Source of the DNA: Candidatus Scalindua sp.
GTDB taxonomy: Bacteria; Planctomycetota; Brocadiia; Brocadiales; Scalinduaceae
Assembly: GCA_031316235.1 (NCBI GenBank)
Contig: JALDRA010000001.1
Span: 3,150,001-3,182,000, forward strand
Direction of reading: 5' to 3'
Length of the DNA stretch: 32,000 nucleotides
Notes under the pieces: model-generated
The model's input: the letters and a program-made list of their open reading frames with translations, nothing else
What the model was told of the DNA's origin: nothing
Databases searched by the model: none
Translations under genes and position numbers: made by a program
Part shown: in pieces, positions 3,658 to 23,961 of the stretch
Position numbering within the stretch: the first letter of the stretch is position 1
Layout: each line of letters starts with the position of its first letter

Positions 3658-3710
3658 TATACTCATCTCATTACTGGATTTTATCCGAAATCCAGTATGA
3701 GATGAGTATA
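3658..3710. repeat. Palindromic solo copy (copy E) of the TATACTCATCTCATA repeat family
   Basis: Sequence TATACTCATCTCAT-T-ACTGGATTT-tatccg-AAATCCAGT-ATGAGATGAGTATA. This is a 23-bp stem with one bulged T and a 6-nt loop. It lies 11 nt after the ThiF/MoeB stop and 36 nt before the pgi ATG. Confidence 0.85.
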
Positions 3711-3746
3711 TTAAAAAAGGTGAGTCATGAATGTGTCGGGGTACAT

Positions 3747-5408
3747 ATGCTCAATAAAATAAATCCTACTCAAACAGAGAGCTGGAAAAGTTTGTCCCTT
3801 CATTTCGAAGAAATGAAGGGCGTTCACATGAAAGATCTCTTTGCTGCTGATCCTCATAGATTTCAGAAATTTTCCCTCAAGCACAAAAAGATCCTTGTCG
3901 ATTATTCCAAGAACATCATAACGGAGAAAACAGTGCAGCTGTTACTTGCATTGGGGGGGGAGGTCGGTTTGAAAGATGCGATTGAGAAGATGTTCGCTGG
4001 AGACAGGATTAATGAGACGGAAGAGAGGGCTGTCCTGCACACCGCCCTGAGAAACAGAGACAACAGGCCTGTCTATGTGGATGGCAGGGACGTTATGCAG
4101 GAAGTAAACGGGGTCTTAAAAAAGATAGAAAAGTTCTCTTCTCAAATTATATCGGGCCATTGGAAGGGGTTCACAGGCGAAAAGATTACGGATATTGTCA
4201 ACATTGGGATCGGGGGTTCTGATCTGGGCCCTGTAATGGTCACGGAATGTCTGCGTCCCTATGCGGAAAAAGGTTTGTCAATCCATTTTGTCTCAAATAT
4301 TGACGGTACACATATATCCGAAACATTGAAGGGGTTGAGTCCTGAAACCACGCTGTTCCTGATAGCCTCAAAGACATTTACGACACAGGAGACGATGACA
4401 AATGCATTCAGCGCAAGGGACTGGTTTTTAGAGTCGGCAAGGGATCAGACGCACGTTTCGAGACATTTTGTTGCTGTCTCTACAAACAGTGCCAAGGTTG
4501 AAGAGTTTGGTATCGATAAAGAGAACATGTTTGTTTTCTGGGACTGGGTAGGGGGACGTTATTCACTCTGGTCGGCAATCGGGCTTTCTATAGCCTGTTT
4601 CCTGGGGTATGAAAATTTTACTGAGCTGCTGCAGGGCGCCTTTGAAATGGACAACCACTTCTCTACTGCTCCCTTTGATGAAAACATACCGGTCATTCTG
4701 GGACTGCTTGGAGTATGGTATGGAAATTTCTTCGGTGCAGAGACTGAAGCCATATTGCCCTATGACCAGTATATGCACAGGTTCCCTGCATACTTTCAGC
4801 AGGGGAACATGGAGAGTAACGGGAAGTCTGTGGATAGAAATGGCAGGAGAGTTGACTATCAGACGGGTCAGATTCTCTGGGGAGAGCCGGGGACAAATGG
4901 TCAACACGCCTTTTATCAATTGATTCACCAGGGAACCAAGATGATTCCTGCAGATTTTCTGGCACCGGCGGTCAGCCATAACCCGATTGGTGAGCATCAT
5001 GAAATTCTGTTGTCAAATTTTTTTGCGCAGACGAAAGCCCTCTTGAACGGAAAGTCCAGGGATGAGGTTATTGAAGAGTTGAAAGAGGACGGAAAGAGTG
5101 AGGAAGAGATTCAGAAATTATCTCCTCATAAGGTGTTTGAAGGGAATAAACCAACGAATTCTATCCTCTTCGAAAAATTGACACCGGGAATCCTCGGGAA
5201 TCTTATTGCGATGTATGAGCATAAGATCTTTGTGCAGGGAGTGGTATGGAATATCTTTAGTTTTGACCAGTGGGGGGTTGAACTTGGAAAGCAGCTGGCA
5301 ACAAAGATACTACCAGAGCTGAAGGGTGACAAACCTGTTGCTTCTCATGACTGTTCCACAAACGGTTTAATCAATGCCTTTAAAGAGATGCGAAGGTACT
5401 CCCGGTAA
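3747..5408 (+). CDS. pgi: glucose-6-phosphate isomerase
   Basis: [21 protein letters not shown]...MKDLFA.D..RF.KFS matches the canonical Pgi N-terminus. Also present: [31 protein letters not shown] and [17 protein letters not shown]. The track ORF start at 3651 reads through repeat copy E and is probably an artefact. Confidence 0.93.
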
Positions 5409-5664
5409 CGATTGCAGGGAAACAGTTAAGGATGCATGAAATGAAACGACAGCAGAAAAAAGATATCTCACCTGGTGGTTGCTTCTTGACCAATCATCAG
5501 CAGATGAAGTGTGTCACCAGTCTCGATAAAACCCGGGTAACAGCAGGTTTGTTCCCTGTGCCGGTGCAGCATGATCTTACACCTGCTGATATCGGTAAAC
5601 CTCCAATTGCCTTTCGTTTTGATCTCTTGATTATGATTTCTGACCTTCTTGAAATGGATATGAC

Positions 5665-6156
5665 TTGAAAACAGTGATACCCTTTATGGGTGTAACGATA
5701 CTGTTGCTCTTTACGGCAGGTTGTTTAACGACTACGCAAAAGAGCAGCGGGATAGGGACCGGTATTGGTGCGGTCCTTGGTGCTGGTATCGGTGCATTGA
5801 TAGGTGATCCCGCAATGGGTGCGGCAATCGGTGCAGGAGCCGGTGCCCTGGGAGGAGCGCTGGTCGGAGATCAGATGGATAAAAAAAGGGAAGAGGCTGA
5901 AAAAGCGGATCTCGAAAGGCAACTCGAACTTGAAAAACAATCCGGATCCGGAGAGGGGAAGAATTATATAGAGGCTCACTATGAATATGTCAAGAAGAGA
6001 AAATGGGTTGATACCTCTGAAAAAGAACGGGTATGGGTTGAAGAGCGTATTGAGGGTGAACGAAGAATAGAGGGTCATTATGAGAACAGGCTTGTTCCTT
6101 CAGGGTACTGGGAAGAGCATGAAGAGAAGATATGGGTCCCCGCTCATCATGAATAG
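5665..6156 (+). CDS. glycine-zipper lipoprotein with a charged, W/H-rich C-terminal region
   Basis: Lipobox LFTAGC, then GIGTGIGAVLGAGIGALIGDPAMGAAIGAGAGALGGALVG. The C-terminus has repeated WV..E / GHYE / WVPAHHE strings. Start is TTG 5665 or ATG 5686. Confidence 0.6.
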   Translation: MKTVIPFMGVTILLLFTAGCLTTTQKSSGIGTGIGAVLGAGIGALIGDPAMGAAIGAGAGALGGALVGDQMDKKREEAEKADLERQLELEKQSGSGEGKNYIEAHYEYVKKRKWVDTSEKERVWVEERIEGERRIEGHYENRLVPSGYWEEHEEKIWVPAHHE

Positions 6157-6219
6157 TTCCCCGTGGATCATCTCAAAAGAGCCGATAAAAAATATAGTAA
6201 TTACTGGGAGGCAGATGAG

Positions 6220-6903
6220 ATGGAAGGTAAAGATAACGTTAAGACAGAAGAAGGGCTCAAAATTGAGTTGGAAAAACTGCGTCAGCGTCTAAAAGAGACG
6301 GAAGTATCAGAGGCCAGAAATAAGAGACTGATCGAAGAGTTACGTAGTGATTCTGCCAAATATCAGGCAATTGCGCATTCATTCGATGGTTTAATCTACA
6401 TATGTTCTGAAAGCTACAGTGTGGAATTTATGAATGAGAAGTTTCTTGAGCGTACAGGGTTTGATCCAACCGGGCAGAAGTGCTACAAGGCCCTTCATGA
6501 TTTGGACAGCATCTGTTCATGGTGTGTGAATGAGAGAGTCTTTCAGGGAGAAACCGTATATTGGGAACTTCTCAGTCCCAAAGATAATCGCTGGTATCAT
6601 ATCATGAATGCACCGTTTGTTCATCCGAGCGGACAAACATACAAGATGTCGATCATACAGGATATTACAGATCGAAAAAATGCAGAAGCGGAGCGGGAGA
6701 GGATAAAGAATCAACTTCACAGTGTTCTCAAAAAGGGGCTTAGCGGATATCTTTCTATCTGTTCATCATGCAAGAAAATCCGTGACAGCAATAATAGCTG
6801 GATAGAAATTGAAAGTTATATTCACTCCCGTACGGAAACTCAGTTTAGCCACAGTATCTGTCCAGCGTGTATCAGTAAGTTGTATCCGGAACTGGAGAAG
6901 TAA
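6220..6903 (+). CDS. PAS-domain protein with a C-terminal four-cysteine module and no kinase domain
   Basis: GGGAGG lies 8 nt upstream of ATG 6220; the track starts at GTG 6163. The protein has a coiled-coil leader and a PAS-like core (FDGLIYICSESYSVEFMNEKFLERTG...WYHIMNAPF...MSIIQDITDRK). The tail is CSSCKKIRDSNNSWIEIESYIHSRTETQFSHSICPACISKLYPE. Confidence 0.7.
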   Translation: MEGKDNVKTEEGLKIELEKLRQRLKETEVSEARNKRLIEELRSDSAKYQAIAHSFDGLIYICSESYSVEFMNEKFLERTGFDPTGQKCYKALHDLDSICSWCVNERVFQGETVYWELLSPKDNRWYHIMNAPFVHPSGQTYKMSIIQDITDRKNAEAERERIKNQLHSVLKKGLSGYLSICSSCKKIRDSNNSWIEIESYIHSRTETQFSHSICPACISKLYPELEK

Positions 6904-7035
6904 TCCAAGGCCTGCCCGGAGGTGCTCACACCGGTACGTTGCATTTCTGAAACAGTATTAAATTCTTCAGTCAACCCGCGTTCCGTGTTACTGTTTCTTC
7001 TCTTTTACGGTTACGTCAGTTTAGCTGAGAGTAAA

Positions 7036-7578
7036 TTAGAACGGGGTGTTGATGCTGATCCCGGCTCCGGCAAACCAGTCATCAGCATCATCTGAGAGTC
7101 CCACTCCGGTACTGGCATCAAGTTGAATATTGTTGCGAACCTTATAAGTAAATCCGGTATCAAATGAATGGGCAGGATTACCATTTGCGCTCATTGGCAC
7201 ATTTCCGAATGACTCCGCAAAAGTGCCGAAGCGATCAGTAATTTTAAACCCGGCAGAAACAGCATATTCAAAGGACGATAACGTATCATGGCCTCCTCCG
7301 GATCCATCCCTTACAGTTTTCCAGGACATTCCCAGGTTATATCCGATGGAGATTCTTTCTGTTACGGAGTTTGAGAATAAAAATTGGAAAGAGGGGTCCG
7401 CCCGTTCACTCGATAATGCGTTTTTTCCCGTTGGCAAAGTCAATCCAGCAAGAAATCCCATTTCAGGGCGTACACCTGATTCTTTCAATACGTTAATCTT
7501 GAATCCTATTGCCGTATCACCGGGTCCATCCTCATTCTCCGCATCTTCAGAAATATATCCATCAAAGCTGAGACGCAA
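7036..7578 (-). pseudogene. 5'-truncated outer-membrane beta-barrel (MetA-pathway/phenol-degradation-like transporter family)
   Basis: 180 codons of alternating beta-strand pattern end in ...GAGISINTPF, a terminal Phe typical of OMPs. There is no signal peptide and no ATG start. An in-frame TGA lies 8 codons upstream of the TTG, and repeat copy D lies about 70 nt upstream. Confidence 0.5.
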
Positions 7579-7650
7579 CTCAATCCTGCTCTTTGCTGCT
7601 CAGGGAACTTACGTTTCTTGTTAACAGAGTTTAAACCGTTTGATAAACTA

Positions 7651-7708
7651 CAATACTAAAACAGATTTGGTTTGAGATTTTTCTGAAAACCATTATGAGA
7701 TGAGTATA
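7651..7708 (-). repeat. Minimal copy (copy D) of the repeat family, termini only
   Basis: The reverse complement reads TATACTCATCTCATAATGGTTTTC-agaaaaatctc-AAACCAAATCTGTTTTAGTATTG. The first 24 nt are identical to copy A; the 3' block matches the A/B 3' end. Confidence 0.8.
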
Positions 7709-7983
7709 CAATGTACGTAATAATTTCGCAACCGGAACGTACTGATGTACGTCAAGGATTCACGCATTAATCCACAATTCTTATTTTTACAATAATCTGG
7801 AGAAATGGTATTATCATCCTTTGCAGGATACTTTAATGTGATAGGTGTATTCTTAATTGATACCAGAATCTGATGGTAATACCGCTTTCAATTTGCAATT
7901 TGGTATACCAGGGGAGAAAGGATTACAATGGATACGGATCTGAAGTTGTGAGTACGATTCAGGAATCCGGATTCTAATAAAGC

Positions 7984-10900
7984 ATGGCTCGTTACAGAAA
8001 GATAGGTATTGGAGTAACTGGATTTTTACTGTCTCTACTCATTATCTGCAATTACCTCTCATCTCCCTTCATCAATTCAGGACCGATAAAGAGAAAGATT
8101 CAGGCCGCTATTTCGCAAAAATTTGGAGGGCAGGTTGAATACCTTTCAGTCGATCTTTCACTATTTCCATTTATTCATGCACGTGTTGACCAGGTAACTT
8201 TTTTTCTACCGGGAAAGATTAAGGGAAGAATAGAGACATTGGACATCTTTCCAGAGATTTTACCTCTCTTTGCAGGGAAAGTAAGGATCCGCGAAATTGA
8301 TTTAGAGTCTCCCGATTTCGATTTTGCTCTGTTCAGGGATAAGGAGAAACGCAAGATAACAAAAGAACTGGTAACTCTTGATATGATTAAGGACATAGTG
8401 CCGAACGTGTTATTCCCGTTGTTTTCTGAACTGCCGCAGATTCAGATTACCATTGAAAACGGAACAGGGAATATTACGGAAGGGGATGAAACCGTTTTTG
8501 ATATCAAGAATATTCAGGCAGAAATCAGCTCTCTTTCAAAAGAGATAGATATCAGCATCAAAGGCAGATCCGGAATATGTAATACTTTTTCGGTGGAGGC
8601 AAACATTGATCGAAGTGATTTCAAGGGTAATGGCGTTATCCAATTGGGTTTCTTTCAGCCACAATCCCTTGTTGATCGATTTTTACCGGATACCTCCTGT
8701 CGTATTTCAGAATCGATCGATAAACTGAGTCTGCACGTTGAGGTTGATGGCCCCCGTGACTTCAAGGCAGAGATAGAAATCTCTCCTTACAGCCTGAAAG
8801 TCAAGAAGGGTGACAGGGAACTGTTCCTGAAATCTAAAAAAGTGAAAAGCTCTCTTCACATCGGGGAAACTGAAACGGAGGTATCGCTTACTGAGCTTGA
8901 GCTTGAACATCCTCATCTTACGATGAGGGGAAAATTAGTTGTTGATCATGAAACCCGGCAAATCAACCTGGAACTTACGGGTAGAGATATTGACATCCAT
9001 TCGGTACGGGAAGAAGCTCTGGCTTCTGCAGGAGATAATGAGGTTGTAAGGAAAGTTTTTCAGATTGTAAAGGGTGGCCGGCTGTCTGATATGATGTGCA
9101 CGAGCAAGGGAAGGACATTAGCTGATCTTGGTAACATGGAAACCCTCATCATGAAAGCCGCCATGCGTGAAGGTGACATCGTTATACCCGGTCTGGACCT
9201 CCAGATGGAAGATGTTACAGGAGATTTTGTTGTTAATCAGGGCATACTGGAAGGTGATGATATCAGCGCCAGACTCGAAGATGCGTACGCAGAGGAGGGA
9301 AGGATCAGCATCGGCCTGAAAGGAAGCGGTGCTGATCTTCATGTTGAAGCAGAGATAACGGCAGCAGCCGAACAGATTCCGCCGCTTCTCAACCGATTCG
9401 TAGGAAACAGGACCGTTTTGCGTGAGATCAACCGGGTAAAAAATGTAAAAGGGAGTGTTGCGGGTAAACTGCTTCTCGGCGGACATCTTGACGCAATTAA
9501 TGTTGAAGCGGATATTAACAAGATTGATGTTTCTGCCCATTACAAGGGAGTACCCTTTCCATTACATATTAAAGAGGGAGGTTTTCATTACGACAGGGAA
9601 ACCATAGGCCTTGAGAACCTGGGGGGCACACTTGGCAGCTCCCCTTTTTCGGAGCTTTCTGCCCGGATAAGTCTTGGAAAAGATGCCTATATAGAAGTTC
9701 AATCCGGGAAGATTCTGGCCTTTCTAAAGGAAATATATCCATGGATCTCCTCGTTTGAAAAGGCGGGGAGAAGCCTTGAAGAGGTAAAGTCCGTAAGTGG
9801 TATCCTTCAGGTAGTGTCAATGAATCTGAAGGGTCCGCTTACCACACCCGAATCATGGTTTATCGAAGCTGCAGGTGAGGCGAAAGACCTCCTTGTTGAC
9901 ACAACCCTCTTTGCCGACCCTCTTGAAGTAAAAGAGGGCATTTTCAAAGTGGTAGATAAAGAGTTCTTTCTGACACATTCAAAGGTGAAGGCCGCTGACA
10001 GTTCATTGAGAGTATCAGGGGTTCTCAGCCATAATGCGGGAGTGCTTGACAAGGCAGATATTACATTCCATGGTGAAATGGGGCAGAAATCTCTGGAATG
10101 GATTGAAAAACGGGTGAACCTGCCATCTGATTTAAGTGTCAGGCCGCCTCTTTCCATACAAAAGGCCCGAATTACCTGGAAAAAGGATTATGGAACGTCA
10201 TTTGTCAGCAGTCTTACCTTTCAGAACGATGGACCGGAGGTTTCAGTAGATATGTTCATGAATCCTGAGGGCATTGAGATGAAGAGTGCTCATATCCAGG
10301 ATGGAGAATCGAGTGTATCTTTCAGGTTCGATTTCGGGGAGAAGGTGATCAACTTTGGTTTTACGGGAAATCTGTCACACACGACTACGGACAAAATATT
10401 TCTCAATACCCCATTTGCAAAGGAGCGGATTGAGGGTGATATTAAGGTACATATCCGGCTGGATCGACCTGAACATTCCACGTTTCAAGGGACATTGAAG
10501 GGGAAAGATCTTCCGTTCTCCTGGAATCGGAAGGTTCCTCTTCACATAAACGACATTTCATTGCATGGGGAAGGGAAAAGCGTAAGAGTGGGCTCGCTCT
10601 TACTCACCTTGAGTGACAATCGCCTTTCAGTACAGGGTGATGTTACCATATCTGAGGATGGTTTTCTCTTTGATCTTGACACGTCTGCGGGTGGACTTGA
10701 CTGGGGTACAATCAGAAAAATCCTGCCTGTTGAGGATAAAAGAGAGGGCAAGGGTACGGAGAATCAAAATGAAGAAACGAGTGTTGATGAAAATGCGGGC
10801 AACGGTGAAGTAAAACGGTTCTGGGACATACCCGTGAAGGGAACTCTCGGATTAGATGCTGAATCCTTCACCTTTGAACGATACACCTGGAAACAGTTAC

Positions 10901-11682: not shown

Positions 11683-11815
11683 AGGAAGTATAGTATCAGA
11701 CCCCGGAGTTGATTTCATGCTCCCGTGGACTTTCCATCATTTACCGGAAGATATCAGGTCAATAGGTGAATAATGTTTTTATTATTTTTCTTATTTAATA
11801 CGAGAAGGAGCATTA

Positions 11816-12667: not shown

Positions 12668-12737
12668 GGAAAATTGTTTCTGCCCATGGTATCACATTTG
12701 TCTCAAAAACTTGTTTGCAATAGATTCCTGCAATCAG

Positions 12738-12860: not shown

Positions 12861-14177
12861 TTATTGTTGCAGTGAAGGCGGCATCAATATATCACTTACT
12901 TCTTCTTTGACTATTAATTCCCTCGCATTACATTCCTGCCTGGCTCTGGGAGTAAGCCGACCGGTTATCCATATCTCCACTTTGCTGACAGGGCGACTTC
13001 CGACACTCTTCAGTTGTACCATAGCTGCTGTACCAAGGTCTGCTCGGTCAGTCCAGTAGACGTCGTCGGTAGGAAGAGTGGAAATCAGTGCACGATCTAC
13101 GGTGTATCCCATCACGATTTTTCGAACGGGGATCAACTCACTGAGAGGTCTTACTTGAGTATGGTAACCGTACAACATCTCAGCCATACGCTGATACAAG
13201 AATGCCTCTTCCTCATACTCTGCAAAGAGAGCCTGTTTCACGAACTGATCACGGTTCTTTACCCCTGGCATTTCCGTCAGTGCATGAACCAGTATGGTTG
13301 TATGGCGTGGAGAATACTTAGGATGTCTGAGGAATTCTTCAATGACAGAGTCTTCCACTTCCATCTGCTTGAGTTTCTCACGATTTATTTTCTGAAGATC
13401 TTCAGGAGAGCTGTCACGCAATATCGTGTTCATTCCATGGACCAGACTCGTAGCCTTAATTGATATGAAAGCGACTTCCGATGCACCTTTAATAGGCATC
13501 ATGGCGAGCTTGACTCCCAACCCACCAGCGAAACCAGCCCACGCAACGCTGTTCAGCTCCTTCTGAAGTACTTCGTTTGAAGAATAGACATCTACTCCCA
13601 ATTCGTGTGCATACTGACGTTTATTTGCAGAGAAGCCAATAAGCTCTTTTGCATAGCTATCCTCCTGATCTCCTCTCCCGCCTTTTGTCATCTCACCAAT
13701 ACGCCCGAAGAATCTCCCCACCCCCTTGGGCACCCCTTTAATGGTACTGACGGGGTTCATGATCAGGGCCTTTGCTCCCTTGATAGGACTCGTGGCCGCT
13801 TTTTTTACCGCATCGCCGAAGGCATCTGATTTTTTGATCTCTTGCAAGGCAGCTATGGCTTTAATCTCCGATACACGTATCTGCAGCATCTCTTCACCAT
13901 CCGCCTCAAACTGCCCAAACCGGGACATAAGGGTGTAGCGGTTGTTAAAACCAAATGCAATAACATTTCTATCCACCCAGAAGTCCTTGCCTTCAAGAAG
14001 CTCTGGGGGTAAGATCTTGTATGCGTCTAGTACCCCCGGCTCTTCGTATTCTTCAGTCTGGGCCAATGCCGGGATAACGCAAACAGCTGTGACAAACACC
14101 ATAATTCCGAGAGCCATACACAGTGATAGATGCATTTTTGTAGTGCGCTTTAATGGCAATCTGCTTATCTTGTTCAT
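12861..14177 (-). CDS. Secreted or membrane-anchored protein of unrecognised family (paralog P1)
   Basis: GAGGAG lies 9 nt before ATG 14177; the track start is 14195. Signal/anchor: LSLCMALGIMVFVTAVCVIPALAQ. It is collinear with the 20205-21527 protein over nearly the full length (KRQYA.ELGVD.YS.N.VLQ.ELNS..WAGFAG; SPEDLQ.INREKLK.M...DSVIE.FL.HP.YSP; GVKNRDQF.KQA). Confidence 0.7.
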   Translation of the reverse strand: MNKISRLPLKRTTKMHLSLCMALGIMVFVTAVCVIPALAQTEEYEEPGVLDAYKILPPELLEGKDFWVDRNVIAFGFNNRYTLMSRFGQFEADGEEMLQIRVSEIKAIAALQEIKKSDAFGDAVKKAATSPIKGAKALIMNPVSTIKGVPKGVGRFFGRIGEMTKGGRGDQEDSYAKELIGFSANKRQYAHELGVDVYSSNEVLQKELNSVAWAGFAGGLGVKLAMMPIKGASEVAFISIKATSLVHGMNTILRDSSPEDLQKINREKLKQMEVEDSVIEEFLRHPKYSPRHTTILVHALTEMPGVKNRDQFVKQALFAEYEEEAFLYQRMAEMLYGYHTQVRPLSELIPVRKIVMGYTVDRALISTLPTDDVYWTDRADLGTAAMVQLKSVGSRPVSKVEIWITGRLTPRARQECNARELIVKEEVSDILMPPSLQQ

Positions 14178-14505
14178 TAGGGAGTCTCCTCTCATATTCT
14201 TGCTGAATTTAATTGAAATAAGATATAGAGTAATGTATGCAGATGGAGAAAAAAAGCAATAAGCTGCAATTTACACAGTAATAACAAAAAATTAATAGTT
14301 TTGCAATACATTAAATCCCATACATTATCTCAAAGTATTGTAATGTTGCCTTTTTAACCTGGATGTTGAAATGCGCTAAATAGTCCCGATCACTCTATTT
14401 TTATCTCAAAAAGTCATTGTCTTTCTTGTTTTTTTATAGTAAGATCAGGCGCTTTTTCTTATTTTGATTAGTAAGTATTCAGTTTGCTTGAACTGACTTA
14501 ATAAA

Positions 14506-14620
14506 TATACTCATCTCATAATGGTTTTCGGATAAAATCCGCGACAAAATTGAGCGAGTATACCTTTACCAAGATTTGATTTTCGGTAAAACCGAAAACC
14601 AAATCGGTTTTTAGTATAGC
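14506..14620 (+). repeat. Full short copy (copy A) of the repeat family
   Basis: TATACTCATCTCATAATGGTTTTCGGATAAAATCCGCGACAAAATTGAGCGAGTATACCTTTACCAAGATTTGATTTTCGGTAAAACCGAAAACCAAATCGGTTTTTAGTATAGC. It aligns with copy B (23848-23961) end to end with about a dozen differences. It contains a 5' closing stem (TATACTC..CTCA / TGAG..GAGTATA) and a 3' 15-bp hairpin (14573-14605). Confidence 0.9.
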
Positions 14621-14744: not shown

Positions 14745-15272
14745 ATGATTATGATACAGTATTTTGCAGACTTTTCAGGTAAAAAATGGGGATTCAGACA
14801 GATCTGTAGCACTTTAATCTTTACTGCTGTTTTTTGTTTCTTGATCACAGGCAACAGTAACGCATCGGCAGAAATGTTTATTTATCCGGCTCAGGGGCAG
14901 AGCGCTGAGCAACTCAATCGAGAAAAATTTGAATGTCACGAATGGGCGAAACAGCAGACGGGTGTTGATCCAAATCGTTTGGCAGCTGACGTACAGCCAA
15001 TGCAAGTTGAACAACGTGGAGGAGCTTTTAGAGGAGCAGCACGAGGGGCTGCGGTCGGCGCGATAGGTGGCGCTATCGGAGGAGATGCCGGTAAAGGAGC
15101 TGCAATAGGAGCAGGTGCCGGTGCCCTGATGGGTAACAGGCGAAGGAGACAGTCTGAACATGAACAGATGCGAGCTTACGAAGAAGCAAATCAACAGCGG
15201 AAGGCATTAATGGATACCTTTAATCGTGCATACCGCACATGCCTTGAAGGCCGCGGTTATACCGTGAATTAG
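14745..15272 (+). CDS. glycine-zipper family periplasmic/outer-membrane protein
   Basis: AGGAGG lies upstream and there is a signal peptide. Strings: MFIYPAQGQSAEQ...FECHEWAKQQTG; the zipper GAARGAAVGAIGGAIGGDAGKGAAIGAGAGALMG; and the C-terminal YRTCLEGRGYTV. Confidence 0.7.
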   Translation: MIMIQYFADFSGKKWGFRQICSTLIFTAVFCFLITGNSNASAEMFIYPAQGQSAEQLNREKFECHEWAKQQTGVDPNRLAADVQPMQVEQRGGAFRGAARGAAVGAIGGAIGGDAGKGAAIGAGAGALMGNRRRRQSEHEQMRAYEEANQQRKALMDTFNRAYRTCLEGRGYTVN

Positions 15273-15350
15273 CTCACTTCGTTCGCTAATTTATACTATT
15301 TTGCTGAGCAAAATGAAGATACTAATAATTATAAGAGGGAGGCAAACTGA

Positions 15351-16133
15351 ATGAAACAACGATTTTTTTTCTTCGTATTTATTTTACTGAGTTTATTCAC
15401 GAGTAACCAGGCGTTTAGTTATGAGCAGGGAAGTGCTTCTGCGGTTGATGCTACCGTTGACAAAACACTGCGTCAGATGTGTGATTATCTGAAGAGCGCT
15501 CAGCAGTATACATTTCGTTCTCAGGCTACCTTTGAAAAAATCTCTGTATCTGGTCAGAAGTTAGAGTATGGAGAGACGGTACACGCTTCAGTGCGGAGAC
15601 CTGACCGATTCCATGCAGATATTGTGGGTGATCTTATTAATAATCGCTTCTGGTATAATGGCAGGAGTATCACGATGCTGGATACAGAATTGAACATTTA
15701 TGCGACAACAGAAGCCCCTGCCGATATAGATTCTACCCTGAGTTTTGCAGCAGAAACTCTTGGAATTACCGCTCCACTGGGTGACTTTGTGGTGAGTGAC
15801 CCGTATAGTAGCCTGACTCAAAATGCAAAATCAGCAACCTATGTAGGATTGCATGAAATTAATGGCGTCAAATGCCACCACCTGGCCTTTACTCAGGAAA
15901 ATCTCGACTGGCAGATATGGGTTGAGGACGGCAGTATGCAGGTCCCCAGAAAGATCGTTATTACCTATAAACAGGAGGAGGGAATGCCTCAATACACCGC
16001 AGTATTGTCAGAGTGGGACTTTTCACCACATCTGCCGGAAAGTGTATTCTCCTTTGTAACACCAGTAAATGCTGAAAAGATTGAGTTTATGTCGATAGAG
16101 GAGAAAGTGCCTGACAAGATAACTGACAAATAA
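15351..16133 (+). CDS. DUF2092-like periplasmic protein (LolA-like fold family)
   Basis: GAGGGAGG lies upstream and there is a signal peptide. Strings typical of DUF2092: VRRPDRFHADI.GD...R.WYNG.S.T.LD...N.YA...AP..ID; PLGDF...DPY; GVKCHHLAF.QE..DWQIWVEDG....PRK.VITYK. Confidence 0.65.
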   Translation: MKQRFFFFVFILLSLFTSNQAFSYEQGSASAVDATVDKTLRQMCDYLKSAQQYTFRSQATFEKISVSGQKLEYGETVHASVRRPDRFHADIVGDLINNRFWYNGRSITMLDTELNIYATTEAPADIDSTLSFAAETLGITAPLGDFVVSDPYSSLTQNAKSATYVGLHEINGVKCHHLAFTQENLDWQIWVEDGSMQVPRKIVITYKQEEGMPQYTAVLSEWDFSPHLPESVFSFVTPVNAEKIEFMSIEEKVPDKITDK

Positions 16134-16220
16134 GTTGGAAATCTCTTCTCTTCATCATTGGTGAAACGATTTTATGTTTGTGACGTAATTGCTCGATTCA
16201 GGTAAATATATCATTCACTC

Positions 16221-17060
16221 ATGAAAAACTGGCTTAAGGAACCATTACTGCATTTTCTCATTGCGGGAGGAATGTTGTTTGCTCTCTATGGCTGGATCAA
16301 CCGCGCAAGCGTCGATAAACCGCGTGTTGTGCGCATCAGCGCTAAGGAAATGGCCTGGCTTAAGGAAATGTGGTCGCGGCAGTGGCACCGTCCGCCCGAT
16401 GAACAGGTACTTCGCGGCCTTGTTACGGATTACCTGAAAGAAAGACTGCTCGCAGCCGAAGCGAAAGAATTGGGCCTGGAAGAGAACGATACCATCGTCC
16501 GCCGTCGGCTGGCACAGAAAATGGAATTTCTTATTCAAGACACGGCCCGTCTTGCTGAGCCCGGTGAAAATGAACTGCGCAACCTCTATAATGCCAATCG
16601 CGCTCAATACCAAACCCCGGAGCGCATCACGTTTACTCAACTCTACTTCAGGACCGAAGCTGCCGCTCAACAGGGGCTGTATGAAATTAAGGCGAACAGC
16701 TCAGCTGAACAGGGCGAACCCAGTTTGCTGGAGCATGAATTGAGCCTCGTGGATGAACAGACGGTTAGCCGTATCTTAGGAGAAAGCTTTGCACAGGAAA
16801 TATTTTCAACGGAAGACAACCAATGGCATGGGCCGGTCGAATCGGAATACGGATTTCATCTTGTTCAAATTAATGAACGGGTGTCTGCCCAGATGCGCCC
16901 ATTTGAAGACGTACACCCGCAGTTACTCGAAGAATGGCAGAGATTGCAGCAAGCCAGAATCAAGAGAGAGTTCTTCGCCGGACTTTTGAAAAAATATGAA
17001 GTTGTCATGGATGAGAGCGTCAAATCACTGATTGGGCCTCTCCCGAAAACAGTTCAATGA
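16221..17060 (+). CDS. parvulin-like peptidyl-prolyl isomerase family protein (Rotamase_2-like)
   Basis: N-terminal TM segment (LLHFLIAGGMLFALYGWI), then LL.EA..LGL...D.IVRRRLAQKMEFL and ...WHGPVESEYGFHLVQINER. The stop overlaps the next start (ATGA at 17057-17060). Confidence 0.65.
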   Translation: MKNWLKEPLLHFLIAGGMLFALYGWINRASVDKPRVVRISAKEMAWLKEMWSRQWHRPPDEQVLRGLVTDYLKERLLAAEAKELGLEENDTIVRRRLAQKMEFLIQDTARLAEPGENELRNLYNANRAQYQTPERITFTQLYFRTEAAAQQGLYEIKANSSAEQGEPSLLEHELSLVDEQTVSRILGESFAQEIFSTEDNQWHGPVESEYGFHLVQINERVSAQMRPFEDVHPQLLEEWQRLQQARIKREFFAGLLKKYEVVMDESVKSLIGPLPKTVQ

Positions 17061-18037
17061 AGTGCACACTTTTTGTTATTTTCTTTTTGCTGACAGCAAC
17101 TGCGGCGATTGCTCATGAATTGCGTCCCGCCTATCTTGAACTTTACGAAGAAAAATCAGATGAATTCAGCGTATTATGGAAAACTCCGATGCGTGGAGAC
17201 ATGCGGCTTTCGTTGTCTCCCGAGTTTTCCGGTAAAACCGAAAATATAACACCACCGGTAACACGGATCACTAATGACGCGGCGGTTGCAACATGGCGGT
17301 TGAAAGCTATTGAACCGCTAAGAGGGCAATCAGTGCGCATTGACGGGCTTGAGAGAACAATGAACGATGCTCTCGTGCGGATGGAGTTTATGGACGGCAG
17401 CACTTGGGTTAAACGGCTTACATCCATGGAGCCGTCCGCAGTCATTCTTTCCGTTCAGAGTAGTTGGTTAGTTGCTTTAGAGTATTTGAAGCTCGGTATT
17501 GAACACATCCTGCTTGGCATTGACCATTTGCTCTTTGTTCTGGCGCTTCTCATCATTACCCGGGGGACAATGCGTCTGGTGAAAACCATTTCGGCTTTTA
17601 CCGTGGCTCACAGCGTCACTCTCGGATTGACGACGATCGGTTTTGTACAAGTCCCATCGAAACCCGTGGAGGCCGTGATTGCGTTGAGCATTGTATTCGT
17701 TGCTGTTGAGATTATTTACTTTCAACGCGGAAAGGCAGGCGTCACGGTAACTGCACCCTGGGTCGTGGCCTTTAGCTTTGGCCTTTTGCATGGGTTTGGT
17801 TTCGCAGGCGCGTTAAGCGAAGTTGGCCTGCCGGCCGGACACATCCCGGCGGCTCTGTTATTTTTTAATATTGGAGTAGAAACGGGGCAGCTCCTTTTTG
17901 TCGCTGTCATCATGTCATTCCTGGTGGTATTGAAAAAATTAAATTTGTCAACACCGAGATGGGTAGTGTTAATGCAAGCGTACACCATCGGTAGCATTGC
18001 CATGTTCTGGGTTATTCAACGAATTTCAGCATTTTAA
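17057..18037 (+). CDS. HupE/UreJ-family membrane protein with an N-terminal periplasmic domain
   Basis: Signal peptide, then HELRPAYLEL and a periplasmic domain of about 130 aa. The membrane core has HILLGIDHLLFVLALL, AFTVAHS.TL and GLLHGFGFAG. It appears translationally coupled to the upstream gene. Confidence 0.8.
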   Translation: MKCTLFVIFFLLTATAAIAHELRPAYLELYEEKSDEFSVLWKTPMRGDMRLSLSPEFSGKTENITPPVTRITNDAAVATWRLKAIEPLRGQSVRIDGLERTMNDALVRMEFMDGSTWVKRLTSMEPSAVILSVQSSWLVALEYLKLGIEHILLGIDHLLFVLALLIITRGTMRLVKTISAFTVAHSVTLGLTTIGFVQVPSKPVEAVIALSIVFVAVEIIYFQRGKAGVTVTAPWVVAFSFGLLHGFGFAGALSEVGLPAGHIPAALLFFNIGVETGQLLFVAVIMSFLVVLKKLNLSTPRWVVLMQAYTIGSIAMFWVIQRISAF

Positions 18038-18063
18038 TTACAAACAACACAAGGAGGAAAAAG

Positions 18064-19998
18064 ATGAATAGCAAAACAGTCTGGACAATAATAATTACCA
18101 GTCTACTGATCTCCGGCCTTATGCAGACAGCGATAGCGCAAGATGCAGGTACTCAGGACAAAGCGTCGTTGCAGAAGGTATTTCCTGATAAACCGCGCTA
18201 TTCACCTTACGCTGGTCGTTGCTACCCTACACGTCCATTTTTCGGCGATACACATCTGCACACCATGTTTTCAATGGATGCGGGTGCTGCTGGTGCACGA
18301 CTCTCACCAAACGATGCGTACAGATTCGCCAAGGGAGAGGAGGTAATAGCCTCCTCACATCAGCCGGTAAAGCTGTCACGGCCCCTCGACTTTCTTGTTG
18401 TGGCTGACCACTCGGATGGCTTTGGATTTTTCCCGCAATTGATGAGCGGAGACCCGGAATTGCTGGCAACACCGCAGGGCAGGAAATGGTATAACCTTAT
18501 CAATGCCGGCAAGGGTGCTGAAGCTACATTTGATATCATTCAAAGTTTCAGCGCTGGTAACCTGCCTGAGGGGTTTCCTTACCCTGGAACAAAGGCTTAT
18601 AGTTCAGCCTGGCAGGAGACCATCAAGGCAGCGGATGCTCACAATGATCCGGGCAGTTTCACGGCCTTTATAGGGTATGAATGGACTTCGAATACAAAGG
18701 GCAATAATCTTCATCGCAATATCATCTTTCGTGGGGATGGTACAAAGGCCAGTCTCGTTGAGCCTTATACTACTCTCAAACCCCTCGGCAGCGACAACCC
18801 CGAGGATCTGTGGAAATGGATGGAGGTTACCGAAGAAAAAACGGGAAGTGATGTTCTTGCCATTGCTCACAACGGTAATCTGAGCAACGGTACAATGTTT
18901 CCCACAATCGAAGCTTTCGGAAAAAATCTTGATCGCCATTATGTGGAAACACGCGCCAGGTGGGAGAGACTCTATGAGGTTACCCAAATGAAGGGTGACG
19001 GAGAAACGCACCCATTTCTTTCACCCAATGATGAGTTCTCCAATTTTGAGCGTTGGGATAAGGCTAATCTCGCCGTTACCCAGGCCAAGTCGAACGACAT
19101 GTTTGAGTTCGAATACGCACGCTCGGCGCTTAAAAACGGACTTAAAATTGGAGCTAAGTTCGGTACCAATCCCTACAAATTCGGTATGATCGGCAGCACT
19201 GATTCGCATACAGGACTCACTGCGGTTGAGGAGGAAAATTTCTTTGGCAAGGTCACCGTAAGCGAACCTAACCCCGGCCGTCTTTCAGGGACATTCATGA
19301 CCAACCCTAAAATCGGGGTGACTATCAGGGACTGGGAAGTGTCATCCTCCGGCTATGCCGCAGTGTGGGCAACGGAAAACACACGAGAGGCAATCTTTGA
19401 CGCCATGGAGCGTCGAGAAACATACGCCACGACCGGTCCTCGCATGATCGTGCGATTTTTCGGAGGATGGGAGTTCGAAGCAAAGGACGCGCACAACCGG
19501 TTGCCGGCTGCTATCGGCTACACCAAAGGTGTGCCTATGGGAGGGGATATTCAAAAAGCTGCCGCTGGTAAATCGCCTACATTTCTGGTTGCAGCACTTA
19601 AAGATCTTATTGGCGCGAATCTGGACCGTATCCAGATCATCAAAGGATGGTTGGATGCAAAGGGTGATGTGCAGGAAAAGATCTATGACGTCGTCTGGGG
19701 AGATGCGGACAAGCGTAAGCCGGATGAGGACGGCAAGCTGCCTCCAGTTGGAAGCACGGTGGATGTTGAAAATGCAACCTGGACCAACACCATTGGTGAT
19801 CCGGAATTGATCACGGTGTGGAAGGATCCGGACTTCGATCCGTCCTTGAGGGCCTTCTACTATGCACGCGTCCTTGAAATTCCAACGCCACGCTGGACTG
19901 CTTACGACGCCAAACATTTTGGGACAGAACCTCTTCCAGAGACCACAATGACGCTTCAGGAGCGGGCCTATACTTCACCGATTTGGTATAATCCTTAA
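18064..19998 (+). CDS. DUF3604-family protein (predicted PHP-like metal-dependent hydrolase)
   Basis: AAGGAGG lies 8 nt upstream and there is a signal peptide. Strings: FFGDTHLHTMFSMDA, DFLVVADHS, FIGYEWTS, LHRNIIF, IAHNGNLSNG, GSTDSHTG, and RAYTSPIWYNP at the C-terminus. Confidence 0.85.
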   Translation: MNSKTVWTIIITSLLISGLMQTAIAQDAGTQDKASLQKVFPDKPRYSPYAGRCYPTRPFFGDTHLHTMFSMDAGAAGARLSPNDAYRFAKGEEVIASSHQPVKLSRPLDFLVVADHSDGFGFFPQLMSGDPELLATPQGRKWYNLINAGKGAEATFDIIQSFSAGNLPEGFPYPGTKAYSSAWQETIKAADAHNDPGSFTAFIGYEWTSNTKGNNLHRNIIFRGDGTKASLVEPYTTLKPLGSDNPEDLWKWMEVTEEKTGSDVLAIAHNGNLSNGTMFPTIEAFGKNLDRHYVETRARWERLYEVTQMKGDGETHPFLSPNDEFSNFERWDKANLAVTQAKSNDMFEFEYARSALKNGLKIGAKFGTNPYKFGMIGSTDSHTGLTAVEEENFFGKVTVSEPNPGRLSGTFMTNPKIGVTIRDWEVSSSGYAAVWATENTREAIFDAMERRETYATTGPRMIVRFFGGWEFEAKDAHNRLPAAIGYTKGVPMGGDIQKAAAGKSPTFLVAALKDLIGANLDRIQIIKGWLDAKGDVQEKIYDVVWGDADKRKPDEDGKLPPVGSTVDVENATWTNTIGDPELITVWKDPDFDPSLRAFYYARVLEIPTPRWTAYDAKHFGTEPLPETTMTLQERAYTSPIWYNP

Positions 19999-20204
19999 TA
20001 TCGACAAAATTTGGGAGACAGTGATTGGTACATTCCGTATTATGCCGATATGAATTCTGTGTGGCTCACCATTTTTCTATTATCTTAACCGCTGTTATCA
20101 CCGCGACACAACAGAGATAATGAATCAGGAGTGAGTGATTTCTTAAATCAGTTCATTTTGGTGAACAGGTACGGTATATCTTAATAGCAGGCAGTATTCA
20201 GAAG

Positions 20205-21527
20205 TCAGAGAGAAACCGTTTCATATTTTTCGCTCATGTTTTCTTCAAGAATTATGCCTTTATCGCTAAGCACCATCCTGGCTCTATCTGAAAATTTCCC
20301 TGAGATACGTAATATAAATTGCTTGGCAGGATAATCCGGTGATTTCAATAACGCTAAAACCTCAGATACAAAAAGATCGGTCAGCTCCGTCCAGTATACA
20401 TGATCCAGCGAATACGTAGCTACAATTGTCTGATCAGCGGTGTGACCTACGACAGATCTCTGGACAGGGATTAATTCCAAAAAAGGTTTTATATTTTTAT
20501 GATAACTCATCATCATCTCGGCATTACGTTGTTGAATGAATGTATTTTCCTCATGCTGGGCCAAGATTGCCTGTTTGATGAACTGATCACGGTTTTTGAC
20601 CCCGTTCATCTCCGCCAGCGCATGGACGATAATCGTCTTACAGGTGGGTGAATATTCAGGGTGGTTAAGAAACGTTTCGATGACAGAATCATCTGCGCCC
20701 ATCTCTTTAAGTTTTTCTCTGTTAATATGTTGGAGGTCTTCGGGTGTATTGTCGCGCACTATTGTTTCGAGGTTCTCAAAAAAAGGGGTACGCACGATCA
20801 TCATGCCTGCTGTGTCTTTAAGGGGATCGGTAACCAATGAAACTCCTGCTTTACCGGCAAACCCAGCCCATGAGATGCTGTTCAATTCCCTTTGGAGTAC
20901 TCTGTTCGTAGAGTAGGGATCAACTCCCAATTGATATGCGTACTGGCGCTTAAGTTTTCCGAATCCTTCAAGCATGGCATTCAGCTCCTTTTCCTGATTT
21001 TCGCCATCACCCGTTGTCAGCTCACCAGAATGTGACAGAAATCTCCATCCTCCCTCAGGTAAGCCTGTTACAGTATCCGGGGCATGTAAAATCAGGTCAT
21101 TTACTCCACGGTATGAACTCCTGCCTGCGTTTTCTAACGCAACAAAGAATGATTTTGTTTTTTTTATCTCACTTAAGATACGTATAGTCTTAATTTCATG
21201 GGCCATCTTTTGCACCATAGCCTGGCTGTGGGCCTCAAATCTGCCAAACGGAGAGATTATGTCGAAACTGTGAGTAAAGCCATGCGTTTTTGTATCTGCT
21301 GTTGTCGCTGTCTTTCCTCTTACCTGGTAATTTTCTCCGAATTGCAAATCTTCGGGTAATACATCACTTGCAATTAACGTCTCCGGAGATTCATAGGGAA
21401 ATGTTAGGCTTTGACCGATAGAATCGGTCGTAAAATAAAGCAAAGATCCTGTAATGGCTACAAAACATATCATTGTTGCTAATGGATTGAAGGAACTCCG
21501 TAGCTTCAACTTGTTAGATTGTTTCAT
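20205..21527 (-). CDS. Secreted or membrane-anchored protein of unrecognised family (paralog P2)
   Basis: AAGGGGAGG lies upstream of ATG 21527; the track start at 21608 adds 27 unlikely codons. N-terminus MKQSNKLKLRSSFNPLATMICFVAITG parallels P1's MNKISRLPLKR.... Shared blocks with P1 are listed under that feature. Confidence 0.7.
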   Translation of the reverse strand: MKQSNKLKLRSSFNPLATMICFVAITGSLLYFTTDSIGQSLTFPYESPETLIASDVLPEDLQFGENYQVRGKTATTADTKTHGFTHSFDIISPFGRFEAHSQAMVQKMAHEIKTIRILSEIKKTKSFFVALENAGRSSYRGVNDLILHAPDTVTGLPEGGWRFLSHSGELTTGDGENQEKELNAMLEGFGKLKRQYAYQLGVDPYSTNRVLQRELNSISWAGFAGKAGVSLVTDPLKDTAGMMIVRTPFFENLETIVRDNTPEDLQHINREKLKEMGADDSVIETFLNHPEYSPTCKTIIVHALAEMNGVKNRDQFIKQAILAQHEENTFIQQRNAEMMMSYHKNIKPFLELIPVQRSVVGHTADQTIVATYSLDHVYWTELTDLFVSEVLALLKSPDYPAKQFILRISGKFSDRARMVLSDKGIILEENMSEKYETVSL

Positions 21528-21669
21528 CTTTTTTATCCTCCCCTTCTTACTTTTTGTTGTAATACAGACGTAATAATTCGTTGTATAAACAGATTGGTGT
21601 AGAACCAAAATTTTAATGAATGATAATTGGTATATTTAAGCATATATGATATGCATTGTCTATGAAAGA

Positions 21670-21919
21670 TATTAATACCAATTTGGTTTTCGGTTTTACC
21701 CGTTTCCGCCAGAATGAGTATCACCCGCCCGTACCGGTACGGGCGGGGGCTGGCGAACGGCTGACAGGCCGGGCTGGCTGTAAGCCAGATCTTGGTGAAG
21801 GTATCCCCGGACAAAAAGCGCCGAGAATTTTACTCGCTCAATTTTATATCGGATTTTACCTGTCTATGTGCGTTCCTTACGCACAGGCAGGCCAGAAAAC
21901 ATTATGAGATGAGTATATC
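21670..21919 (-). repeat. Expanded copy (copy C) of the repeat family, about 250 bp
   Basis: The reverse complement keeps all conserved blocks in order: TATACTCATCTCATAATG; AAAATCCGATATAAAATTGAGCGAGTA; TACCTTCACCAAGAT; GGTAAAACCGAAAACCAAATTGGT. Three insertions are present, including a GC-rich segment with the perfect 24-nt palindrome CCCGCCCGTACCGGTACGGGCGGG (21724-21747). Confidence 0.85.
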
Positions 21920-21965
21920 TGGAGGCTAATGATAGTGGATGCGATCTTTCGAGGAGGAAAGAAGC

Positions 21966-22001
21966 ATGGCAATCATGGCAATGCAGTGGTTTAAATGGTA
22001 A
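21966..22001 (+). CDS. Candidate micro-ORF (11 codons, MAIMAMQWFKW)
   Basis: A perfect GAGGAGG (21951-21957) lies 8 nt upstream of ATG 21966, at the left edge of the AT-rich cassette and 290 nt upstream of the membrane-protein gene. There is no other support. Confidence 0.2.
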   Translation: MAIMAMQWFKW

Positions 22002-22290
22002 CAGGGTTATAATCCATTATGAACATGCAACCTTATAGCCAGTGTTTATGGAAAAGATGTTAAAAATAGTGGTTTTGTACCTTGCGTTGTAACGGTGGTT
22101 TATGGTAGAAAAAACGGTATTTGTGAAGTACCTATTGTGGGAAGACTTGATAAAAGACTCATACAAAAAGGCGGTAGAAAATCATAAATCGTGATTTATA
22201 AATCTGAACATTTGAGGCTGGGTATCATAATGTCCAGCATAAACTTGTCCTTTATTAAGCAGCACATGTGAAGCAAAGAGGCTATGTAAA

Positions 22291-22980
22291 ATGGAACTTG
22301 TGATAAATGGTATAAATATTTTGGCTTATATTTATGAGGAGATCTTCTGGCTTAAGGAAATCTTATTAATAGTACAATCATTTATTGTTGCTGCTTTCGT
22401 GTGGTGGTTTTCCACTTTAAAACAGAGATATACATTACTTCTCATCCTGTCAGCCTTTATCGGATGTGCTTGCGGTATCATAGGTGATTTGGAGTATTGG
22501 AATGATAATGACGTATTAAAGCATATTGCCCCCGTGTCTTTATACTTGATAGGAAATAATGATAAAAAACGAAGAAATGATATTCTCCTGTTCGCGTTTC
22601 TTTGTCCTTTCTTTGTTATTTCTTACGAACCCTACAGAAGTTACTTAATGGCAGCGTTATCCATACTATCACATGTGTTGATTTATTACTTCATTTTTAT
22701 TGTCAGAAGAAGTATATGTTTTTCCATATGTATTGGTATCTTAATCGGATTGCTGTACAATTATATTGGCAGTAGTGCTTCCCCCGGCACGAATGATATT
22801 CTTGTAAATCCTGCGTTGATTACGCTGTATACAAAAGGTATTGATTATTACACGAAAAAGGATAACTATACACTGTTCTTACGGTATTTCTGGATAGTAC
22901 TTTTGTGCTTTGCATATTTTGGAAATTGGATATTTTACTCTGTAAGTGATTATTATGACATGTTTCCATGTTTGTGGTAG
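22291..22980 (+). CDS. Orphan polytopic membrane protein (about 6 hydrophobic segments)
   Basis: 229 aa, very AT-rich coding (a hand count of 22561-22620 gives 19 G+C of 60), rich in F/I/Y/L/C. I recognise no family motif. Confidence 0.55.
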   Translation: MELVINGINILAYIYEEIFWLKEILLIVQSFIVAAFVWWFSTLKQRYTLLLILSAFIGCACGIIGDLEYWNDNDVLKHIAPVSLYLIGNNDKKRRNDILLFAFLCPFFVISYEPYRSYLMAALSILSHVLIYYFIFIVRRSICFSICIGILIGLLYNYIGSSASPGTNDILVNPALITLYTKGIDYYTKKDNYTLFLRYFWIVLLCFAYFGNWIFYSVSDYYDMFPCLW

Positions 22981-23049
22981 GAATTGAAATACACATAAAA
23001 TTCTTTATTAGATTTCAGTAGACCGGATGAGATTGTCTCGTATGATTAA

Positions 23050-23847
23050 ATGTATGTTTCCGTTATTACACAGATAATTCCTGCAACTACGAAAGAGGTG
23101 GATGAAGAGTTGAAAAAGACGTATCTCGAATTCAATCCGGATTTTCCTGCAAAGGTTTTTGAGGGAATGGATGGTGTTTTTAACCTTTCCCTGGTAGCCT
23201 ATTCACAGGATGAAGGAAACACATGGTTCTTTACCGGCGGAAACATAATGGGGTTACGTGTCGCACATATTAAACCTGATATTTTGGAAAAGATTCAAAT
23301 ACCTTTGCCCACGTTACTTTTTGGAGAAGGCGACGATACAATAAAATTGGTCAGGCAAAGGAAACGATGGGTTTCGAATATATCTGAAATGCCAACGGAT
23401 GCAGGTGATGAAAGCATTATCTTTACCCTTGGAGAGAATACGATTGATGAGCAGCCGAATACGGCAGGCTTAGGGAGTTTGAATGATAACCTTGACCTGT
23501 ACATATACCTTGAAGAGTATCCCGATCTACTGGGTGAAGTACGTGGAAATCCGGTCCAACCGGCTGCGGATAAGAATTTTGTTAAACCAGAGGGTAGACA
23601 GGAGACTTCAGGAAATGCATCTCAATCTGTATTCGTTACCAGAACTTCCAACATGTATCACAGACCTGACTGCCCTGGCTTAAAAGATGAGGATCTGCTT
23701 GAATTTGCGTCGTCCGGGGAAAAGCCCTTGAGGCTGGAGGTATGCCCTGTAATCGTTGTAAACCCTGATACAGGAGGTAACATGCTGGAGTCTTACAGGA
23801 ATTACCAACTGCTTGAGCAACCGCCTCCTCAGTGTTACGCAAGGTGA
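23050..23847 (+). CDS. Orphan protein with an Ada-type Zn-binding ('sunset'-like) C-terminal motif, disrupted by a 1-nt frameshift
   Basis: The annotated frame gives ...MYHRPDCPGLKDEDLLEFASSGEKPLRLEVCPV.... Shifting -1 within GGGGAAAAG (23716-23724) gives ...EFASSGEKALEAGGMPCNRCKP with a stop at 23766-23768. This matches E. coli Ada N-terminus FCRPSCRA...ASEALAAGFRPCKRCQP. The intended CDS is probably 23050..23768. Confidence 0.6.
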   Translation: MYVSVITQIIPATTKEVDEELKKTYLEFNPDFPAKVFEGMDGVFNLSLVAYSQDEGNTWFFTGGNIMGLRVAHIKPDILEKIQIPLPTLLFGEGDDTIKLVRQRKRWVSNISEMPTDAGDESIIFTLGENTIDEQPNTAGLGSLNDNLDLYIYLEEYPDLLGEVRGNPVQPAADKNFVKPEGRQETSGNASQSVFVTRTSNMYHRPDCPGLKDEDLLEFASSGEKPLRLEVCPVIVVNPDTGGNMLESYRNYQLLEQPPPQCYAR

Positions 23848-23961
23848 TATACTCATCTCATACTGGATTTCGGATAAAATCCGAGATAAAATTGAGTGAG
23901 TATACCTTCACCAAGATTTGGTTGCCGGTTTTACCGGAAACCAAATCGGTTTTAGTATAAC
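23846..23961 (+). repeat. Full short copy (copy B) of the repeat family
   Basis: (GA)TATACTCATCTCATACTGGATTTCGGATAAAATCCGAGATAAAATTGAGTGAGTATACCTTCACCAAGATTTGGTTGCCGGTTTTACCGGAAACCAAATCGGTTTTAGTATAAC. The 3' hairpin is at 23915-23947. The first two bases overlap the TGA of the upstream ORF. Confidence 0.9.

Follow-up and report, generated by a model that had tools for sequence, protein, structure and literature searches.

A probable family of TA-flanked miniature inverted-repeat transposable elements in the intergenic DNA of Candidatus Scalindua

Results and Discussion

Five related repeats in a 32-kb stretch of a Scalindua genome

The intergenic DNA of a 32,000-nt stretch from Candidatus Scalindua sp. 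(contig JALDRA010000001.1, positions 3,150,001 to 3,182,000; hereafter the window) contains five related palindromic repeats, designated copies A to E, which are the subject of this analysis. A previous sequence-only reading of the window had reported these five copies, and both a scan for the shared terminus and an nhmmer profile recovered them at the same places, with boundaries shifted by about 2 nt. In all probability they are copies of a non-autonomous DNA transposon, i.e. a bacterial MITE (miniature inverted-repeat transposable element), that is abundant in Candidatus Scalindua genomes. The copies, together with the internal modules of the longest one (the arms and modules are defined below), are as follows.

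3658-3710, palindrome (no strand): copy E, 53 nt, near-perfect, two inverted 5' arms
7652-7708, minus strand: copy D, 57-nt a-b' hybrid, 5' arm fused to 3' arm, 3' terminus degenerate
14506-14618, plus strand: copy A, 113 nt, canonical two-unit form (arms a-a'-b-b'), nhmmer E=1.3e-33
21668-21917, minus strand: copy C, 250 nt, long form a-H1-a'-H2-b-H3(long)-b'
21859-21891, minus strand: module H1 in copy C, a GC-rich hairpin that occupies the 5' hairpin loop
21804-21830, minus strand: module H2 in copy C, GC-rich hairpin at the central junction, with GAGTA / TACC on either side
21700-21777, minus strand: module H3 (long form) in copy C, a nested set of GC-rich hairpins capping the 3' hairpin at its tip
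23848-23959, plus strand: copy B, 112 nt, canonical form, nhmmer E=1e-33

The 15-nt terminus TATACTCATCTCATA, allowing for 0-1 mismatch, occurs at 3658(+), 3696(-), 7694(-), 14506(+), 21903(-) and 23848(+), against a chance expectation of 0.05, and the nhmmer profile built from related copies showed that the window holds precisely these five elements and no others. As described earlier, copies A and B align end to end (88% identity over 107 nt), copy D retains the two termini only, and copy E is the 5' arm folded on itself; a 36-nt match between copies E and B is 100% complementary. Copy C contains all the A/B blocks in the same order plus three extra GC-rich segments. This agrees with the sequence-only reading as to block order and number of insertions, but not as to the largest insertion, which, instead of interrupting the 5' arm of the 3' hairpin, lies at the tip of that hairpin. 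The 3' end of copy C is degenerate, with TATTAATATC where TTTTAGTATA is expected.

Copy E is located between a ThiF-family gene (stop codon 3645-3647) and pgi (start 3747), and copy A occupies the intergenic region of the divergent genes 12861-14195(-) and 14745-15272(+), with a TA at either outer end as a putative target duplication. Copy B begins directly behind the TGA stop codon of the ORF 23050-23847 (0 nt gap), and copy D is inserted at a TA within a second repeat family. The flanks of the five copies are unrelated to each other.

Distribution and genomic setting

An exact-match scan with the 22-nt terminus TATACTCATCTCATAMTGNNTT, performed on one genome per species, returned at least 116 stretches. 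The set used throughout this analysis comprises 116 loci (numbered L) and the window, 935 kb altogether, each locus having been fetched by the exact 22-nt 5' match. Nearly all of the matches listed are in the Candidatus Scalindua metagenome-assembled genomes (MAGs) SCAELEC01 and RBC_AMX3, and overall the matches come from several genomes and dozens of contigs. A Scalinduaceae MAG, Scalindua OFTM1 and a Planctomycetota MAG contribute a few, and one in an Uhrbacteria MAG is a chance hit. This agrees with the earlier description of a dispersed, non-autonomous repeat family resembling a mobile element. There are 142 5' termini in the 935 kb, and for 104 of them a 3' terminus could be recognised no more than 700 nt away. 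The 3' terminus is nearly invariant, though it was not used for fetching the loci. The complete copies lie almost entirely outside called genes (101 out of 104), with about 73% of the DNA being coding.

The earlier statement that the sequence matches no named element also held up: no match was obtained in Rfam, in plasmid and viral (phage) contig searches, or by blastn in 5,426 E. coli genomes, and literature searches yielded no published description. Overall, this is a previously undescribed family, of a well-known kind (MITE), in the intergenic DNA of the marine anammox bacterium Candidatus Scalindua.

Architecture of the family

The element proper extends from TACTCATCTCAT to GGTTTTAGTA, with TA flanking it on each side. 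Its consensus (~113 nt) consists of four arms, each starting with TATAC, namely arm a at the 5' end, the internal arms a' and b, and arm b' at the 3' end (a' and b' being inverted), so that a/a' and b/b' represent two palindromic units having a central TATA in common. The proposed pairing of the 5' end with an internal TGAG(C/T)GAGTATA is present, and both hairpins fold. On the other hand, the assertion that the ends share TACT/AGTA only could not be sustained. The 5' end and the reverse-complemented 3' end are identical at 16/24 positions in an ungapped alignment (TATACT plus TGGTTTTCGG), thus forming an imperfect 24-nt terminal inverted repeat (TIR), and an equal or better match was obtained in 5 out of 20000 shuffles.

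The arms are exchanged in inverted orientation, giving a-a', b-b', a-b' and a-a forms (the latter represented by copy E), and the a-a', a-b' and a-a'-b-b' combinations exist as separate elements, as does a minimal form of 29 nt, TATACTCATCTCATAATGGTTTTAGTATA. Up to four GC-rich hairpin modules, all of them optional, are accommodated in the fixed order a-[H1]-a'-[H2]-[H4]-b-[H3]-b'. The first hairpin carries H1 in its loop and the second carries H3 at its tip; H2 is placed at the central junction and H4 within arm b, in its 5' part. Most combinations of their presence and absence were observed, H2 being carried by about 60 copies. The resulting copies are 29 to about 300 nt long, the main size classes being 110-119 and 130-149 nt, and no ORF was found inside them.

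An origin of the modules by nested insertion of independent repeats was considered and rejected for H1 and H2, neither of which was seen outside the family in 935 kb; H3 has solo relatives at four places in the Scalindua loci. These solo nested GC-rich hairpins (L036 6726-6758, L113 422-454, L044 7086-7120 and L055 4952-4970) align with segments of the long H3 form or of H4 at 89-95% identity across 19-35 nt, and may form a family of their own resembling repetitive extragenic palindromic (REP) sequences.

Insertion at TA dinucleotides

The sequence context of the 104 complete copies is symmetric around the flanking TA, the base at -1 being A/T in 79 and the base at +1 being T/A in 88 of them, with A-TA-T as the preferred insertion context. 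No conserved 4-5-nt target beside one end only was seen in the same 104 copies. In two paralogous pairs a single TA is present when the site is empty, and TA[TACTC...AGTA]TA when it is filled. Many copies have inserted into other repeat families. For these we compared insertion models by joining the 45-nt flanks in silico, with no TA, a single TA (2 nt) or TATA (4 nt) left between them, and aligning the resulting empty sites to uninterrupted paralogous repeats. The single-TA model was the best at 91/93 sites (9 elements, representing 7 independent insertions) and accounted for all of the gapless alignments (69/69), while both the zero-TA and the TATA model needed a 2-nt gap.

A difference in occupancy between genomes was found upstream of the ThiF-family gene. 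In RBC_AMX3 (L030 6301-6724) two copies in direct orientation, ~110 nt apart, separate an OEP-family gene from a ThiF-family gene, while the window counterpart (genes 1188-2819 / 2841-3647) has a 21-nt spacer and no copy. The second of these copies stops 22 nt before the ThiF-family start codon, with the ribosome-binding site kept, and a copy in L036 stops 10 nt upstream of a start codon. The orthologous comparison of SCAELEC01 with RBC_AMX3 gave no clean empty sites, the intergenic regions being too diverged. A look-up by exact protein match for empty counterparts of the window copies returned only short contigs ending in repeats, and a metagenome scan with the ThiF-family protein yielded as its three closest loci (~80% protein and ~70% DNA identity) ones with neither synteny nor the element.

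Mode of spread

The sequence-only reading had rejected a TIR-bounded MITE, a position contradicted by the imperfect TIR and by the TA at both sides of the insert. Insertion at a TA dinucleotide, with TA on both sides, is what we observed. TA duplication is a hallmark of IS630/Tc1-mariner transposases, and from this duplication alone we infer that the element would be moved in trans by a DDE transposase, most likely an IS630/Tc1-mariner-like one. Such an enzyme would bind the inverted ends and make a 2-nt staggered cut at TA, thereby duplicating it, and the size variants (29 to about 300 nt) would have arisen via loss or gain of whole arms and GC-rich modules, the long forms being either ancestral to short ones shortened by hairpin deletion or products of module gain. 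In fact, the family displays the set of features by which Delihas (2008, 2011) defined MITEs, including size, no coding capacity, TIRs, target duplication, dispersed intergenic polymorphic copies and a hairpin fold.

Several observations weigh against a MITE. The TIR is imperfect, as the ends diverge between the two conserved blocks, and from sequence alone a 2-bp duplication is not separable from a TA-adjacent insertion of an element with its own terminal TA. Non-orthologous copies are ~92% identical both within and between species (an overestimate due to ascertainment, as a locus was fetched only if it matched the 22-nt 5' end exactly), compared with 73-84% for orthologous coding DNA, as measured between the window genes at 10-3646 and the syntenic RBC_AMX3 locus. 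This hints at constraint or recent activity; the copies may be kept alike by their function, may have spread horizontally, or may stem from a conserved master copy that was active recently. Finally, no transposase gene between matching ends was detected in the window or in the 935 kb of Scalindua loci, nor was a full-length insertion sequence (IS) with such ends, which the sequence-only reading had named as one sign of an ordinary IS derivative. This search, which considered paired termini 0.7-3.5 kb apart and inverted repeats around each 230-520-aa ORF, sampled about a tenth of each MAG, and the MAGs searched probably under-represent multi-copy IS. The absence of an autonomous element is weak evidence, because MAGs retain IS copies poorly.

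A different origin favoured by the sequence-only reading is that of a single-strand-DNA substrate, either a palindrome-associated transposable element (PATE) derived from IS200/IS605 or an element akin to REPs and bacterial interspersed mosaic elements (BIMEs) moved by a Y1 transposase (RAYT) via subterminal hairpins. The strong hairpins near both ends and a window lacking any transposase, as had been stated, would agree with it, as would the solo GC-rich REP-like hairpins related to H3, and a TA-adjacent insertion without duplication is compatible with the sequence data. However, each informative insertion has TA on both sides and the empty sites have one TA, the target context is symmetric rather than confined to one end, and arms function when combined in inverted orientation, as expected of TIRs but not of a left and a right end that differ. 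Moreover, the heads of the elements (TATAC) differ from the GTAG/CGTC tags reported for REPs (PMC3733652), and no Y1 (HUH) transposase flanked by the repeats was noticed by inspection of the genes between inverted copies, with no systematic Pfam scan of all ORFs in the loci. With this evidence combined, we regard such a mechanism as very unlikely. The same can be said of a structured RNA family (a small RNA or a cis-regulatory element/terminator) kept by selection on the transcript with its mobile features being secondary, the other possibility favoured earlier. Its appeal is in the very stable folds (z-scores of -5 to -12, with -11.8 for copy E), the T-run behind the 3' hairpin, the position of copy B directly after a stop codon, the interspecies similarity of copies exceeding that of coding DNA, and a downstream gene that is more often co-oriented with the element (53 vs 33). 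On the other hand, both strands fold about equally well (z -5 to -7), the opposite one as well or better, and orientation is unbiased relative to the upstream gene (42 vs 44) and between co-directional genes (34 vs 25). Covariation, which the earlier reading had proposed to examine, is no higher than in shuffled alignments (0.029 vs a shuffled mean of 0.035 for 27 distinct ~113-nt copies). Pairing in the three helices amounts to 93%, with double-sided changes in 2/971 cells, the 5' strand of helix 1 being unable to vary as the loci were fetched by exact match to it. A compensatory pair noted earlier in the 3' hairpin (T-A in copy A, C-G in copy B) is indeed present, but among the 27 copies U-A is found at this position in 9 and C-G in copy B alone, with no pairing in the remaining 17. 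It belongs to the hairpin tip, which is the most variable and the most often mismatched part of the element (17, 14 and 9 of 27 copies at three positions). Neither the window nor the family has an Rfam match at the gathering score (the best sub-threshold one being 31 bits vs a cut-off of 100), and promoter-like and terminator-like sites are not enriched in the copies. In all likelihood, the hairpins fold as a by-product of the DNA's palindromic sequence and do not represent an RNA structure under selection.

A duplication restricted to this locus, raised earlier as another alternative, is suggested by the clustering of five copies within 20 kb. However, the flanks of the window copies are unrelated, and the terminus is found genome-wide and lineage-wide across Scalindua/Scalinduaceae; therefore a local duplication is excluded for practical purposes. 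Unlikely, yet deserving mention, is that the family is more than selfish DNA. It would then represent either a system of two tiers, with a second, REP-like hairpin element having MITE loops as its specific insertion sites, or a terminator, mRNA-stability signal or protein-binding site domesticated in Scalindua operons. We consider this because the backbone is so similar (~92%, with the above caveat of ascertainment) across species whose genes diverged by ~20%, and because the modules are found only at the hairpin tips and the junction, with H3 having free-standing relatives.

Candidates for an autonomous copy

Three long pairs of termini were assessed as potential autonomous copies and rejected: those in L058 and L101 are copies split by an IS110-family insertion, and the one in L046 encloses unrelated genes. 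The ORFs located between inverted copies appeared ordinary by inspection (e.g. a sulfotransferase-like protein, a CCA-adding enzyme, an oxidoreductase and others). Within the window, the ORFs 12861-14195(-) and 20205-21608(-) were dismissed as transposases, both having N-terminal hydrophobic, signal-peptide-like segments and no family match. They encode paralogous proteins of 444 and 467 aa without a Pfam or NCBIfam match, and their genes share a 100-nt stretch that is 74% identical in DNA. The divergent regions upstream of them carry copy A and copy C, respectively.

Comparison with known bacterial repeats

The closest counterparts of the Scalindua family in build are ERIC, RUP and Correia, i.e. 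TA-flanked palindromic MITEs with size variants. ERIC elements have size variants produced by internal insertions and deletions at fixed sites, and their sequence is conserved across species. Both ERIC and the Scalindua repeats are imperfect palindromes of ~110-130 nt in intergenic, often co-transcribed DNA, with TIRs, 5'-TA-3' flanks and no known transposase (PMC3184786). ERIC differs in belonging to another host phylum and in having no sequence similarity to the Scalindua family (as judged by the blastn search of E. coli genomes), while only the Scalindua family has the GC-rich hairpin modules and the build of two units around a central TATA.

Bacterial MITEs in general are described as A+T-rich elements under 200-400 bp with TIRs, terminal 5'-TA-3', target duplication and long hairpin folds (PMC2229807, PMC3184786). 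Like the Scalindua family, RUP is a ~107-nt A+T-rich MITE that inserts at TA, often within other repeats or IS, and the proposal that it is moved by IS630-Spn1 provides a precedent for a TA-inserting MITE (PMC2229807). RUP thus has a candidate partner with matching TIRs, in contrast to the Scalindua family, for which none was found in the loci searched. The Correia elements of Neisseria (NEMIS/CREE) are likewise 104-157-bp MITEs that have TIRs, fall into several size classes according to their internal segments and number in the hundreds between genes (PMC3184786). They have no sequence relation to the Scalindua family, and they contain an IHF site and functional promoters, of which none was seen in the Scalindua copies, no search having been aimed at IHF or promoter function. 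Ordered modules that are present or absent in various combinations are also typical of BOX (boxA-B-C) and BIMEs (REP plus linker motifs), which, unlike the Scalindua family, are without a clear TA duplication and a TIR-bounded build. BIMEs are built from REPs, and RAYT proteins have been proposed as REP mobilisers.

Implications for Scalindua genomics

Anammox bacteria, Scalindua included, have not been cultured, and MAGs are the main source of knowledge about them; a repeat present at well over a hundred copies per genome accounts for contig breaks. Assemblies do fragment at this repeat, as short-read contigs end inside copies B and E. The contigs in question (Logan contigs L117 and L118) encode the window proteins exactly and stop 26 and 58 nt past the stop codons. 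The copies are usable as strain-typing markers in the style of ERIC-PCR. They may also affect operon expression, a possibility raised by their positions, often a few to a few tens of nt from stop codons or ribosome-binding sites. The family leaves the knowledge of how MITEs work unchanged. It does serve as a landing pad, H2 having received both a group II intron and an IS of the IS110 family, and so offers a natural system for studying hairpin- or sequence-targeted insertion.

Other repeats and insertions around the copies

The IS in H2 is ~1.7 kb long, encodes an IS110-family transposase (PF01548, E=5e-20) and occurs at L101 3147-5009 and L058 4439-6277. Its H2 position is identical in the two different RBC_AMX3 contigs, which suggests sequence-targeted insertion into the MITE; IS621, for comparison, targets REPs by sequence. 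The group II intron (RF02005, 134 bits) starts at about 5450 in L086 (Rfam match 5483-5717), in the H2 module of a SCAELEC01 copy. Another repeat, GTCCGGTTAGGTTTTTGC...GATTCCCGCTAAAAACATGCGGGAATGACAAG, interrupts two MITE copies, one in L080 from about 5420 (-) and one in L067 from about 4010 (-).

The second repeat family that hosts copy D is a ~160-nt palindromic element with the ends AGTGT(C/T)TGAACGAAAAC, represented by 55 near-full-length copies in the Scalindua loci (e.g. L066 2611-2770) and, in the window, by a 54-nt fragment adjoining copy D (7707-7760). Copy D and an unrelated copy in L051 are inserted at the same TA (GG-TA-CAAGG) of this family. Coding repeats are also present in the window: glycine-rich ones at 5802-5862 and 15080-15128 are common to two small ORFs, and the ORF 14745-15272 next to copy A has a match to glycine-zipper outer-membrane domains.

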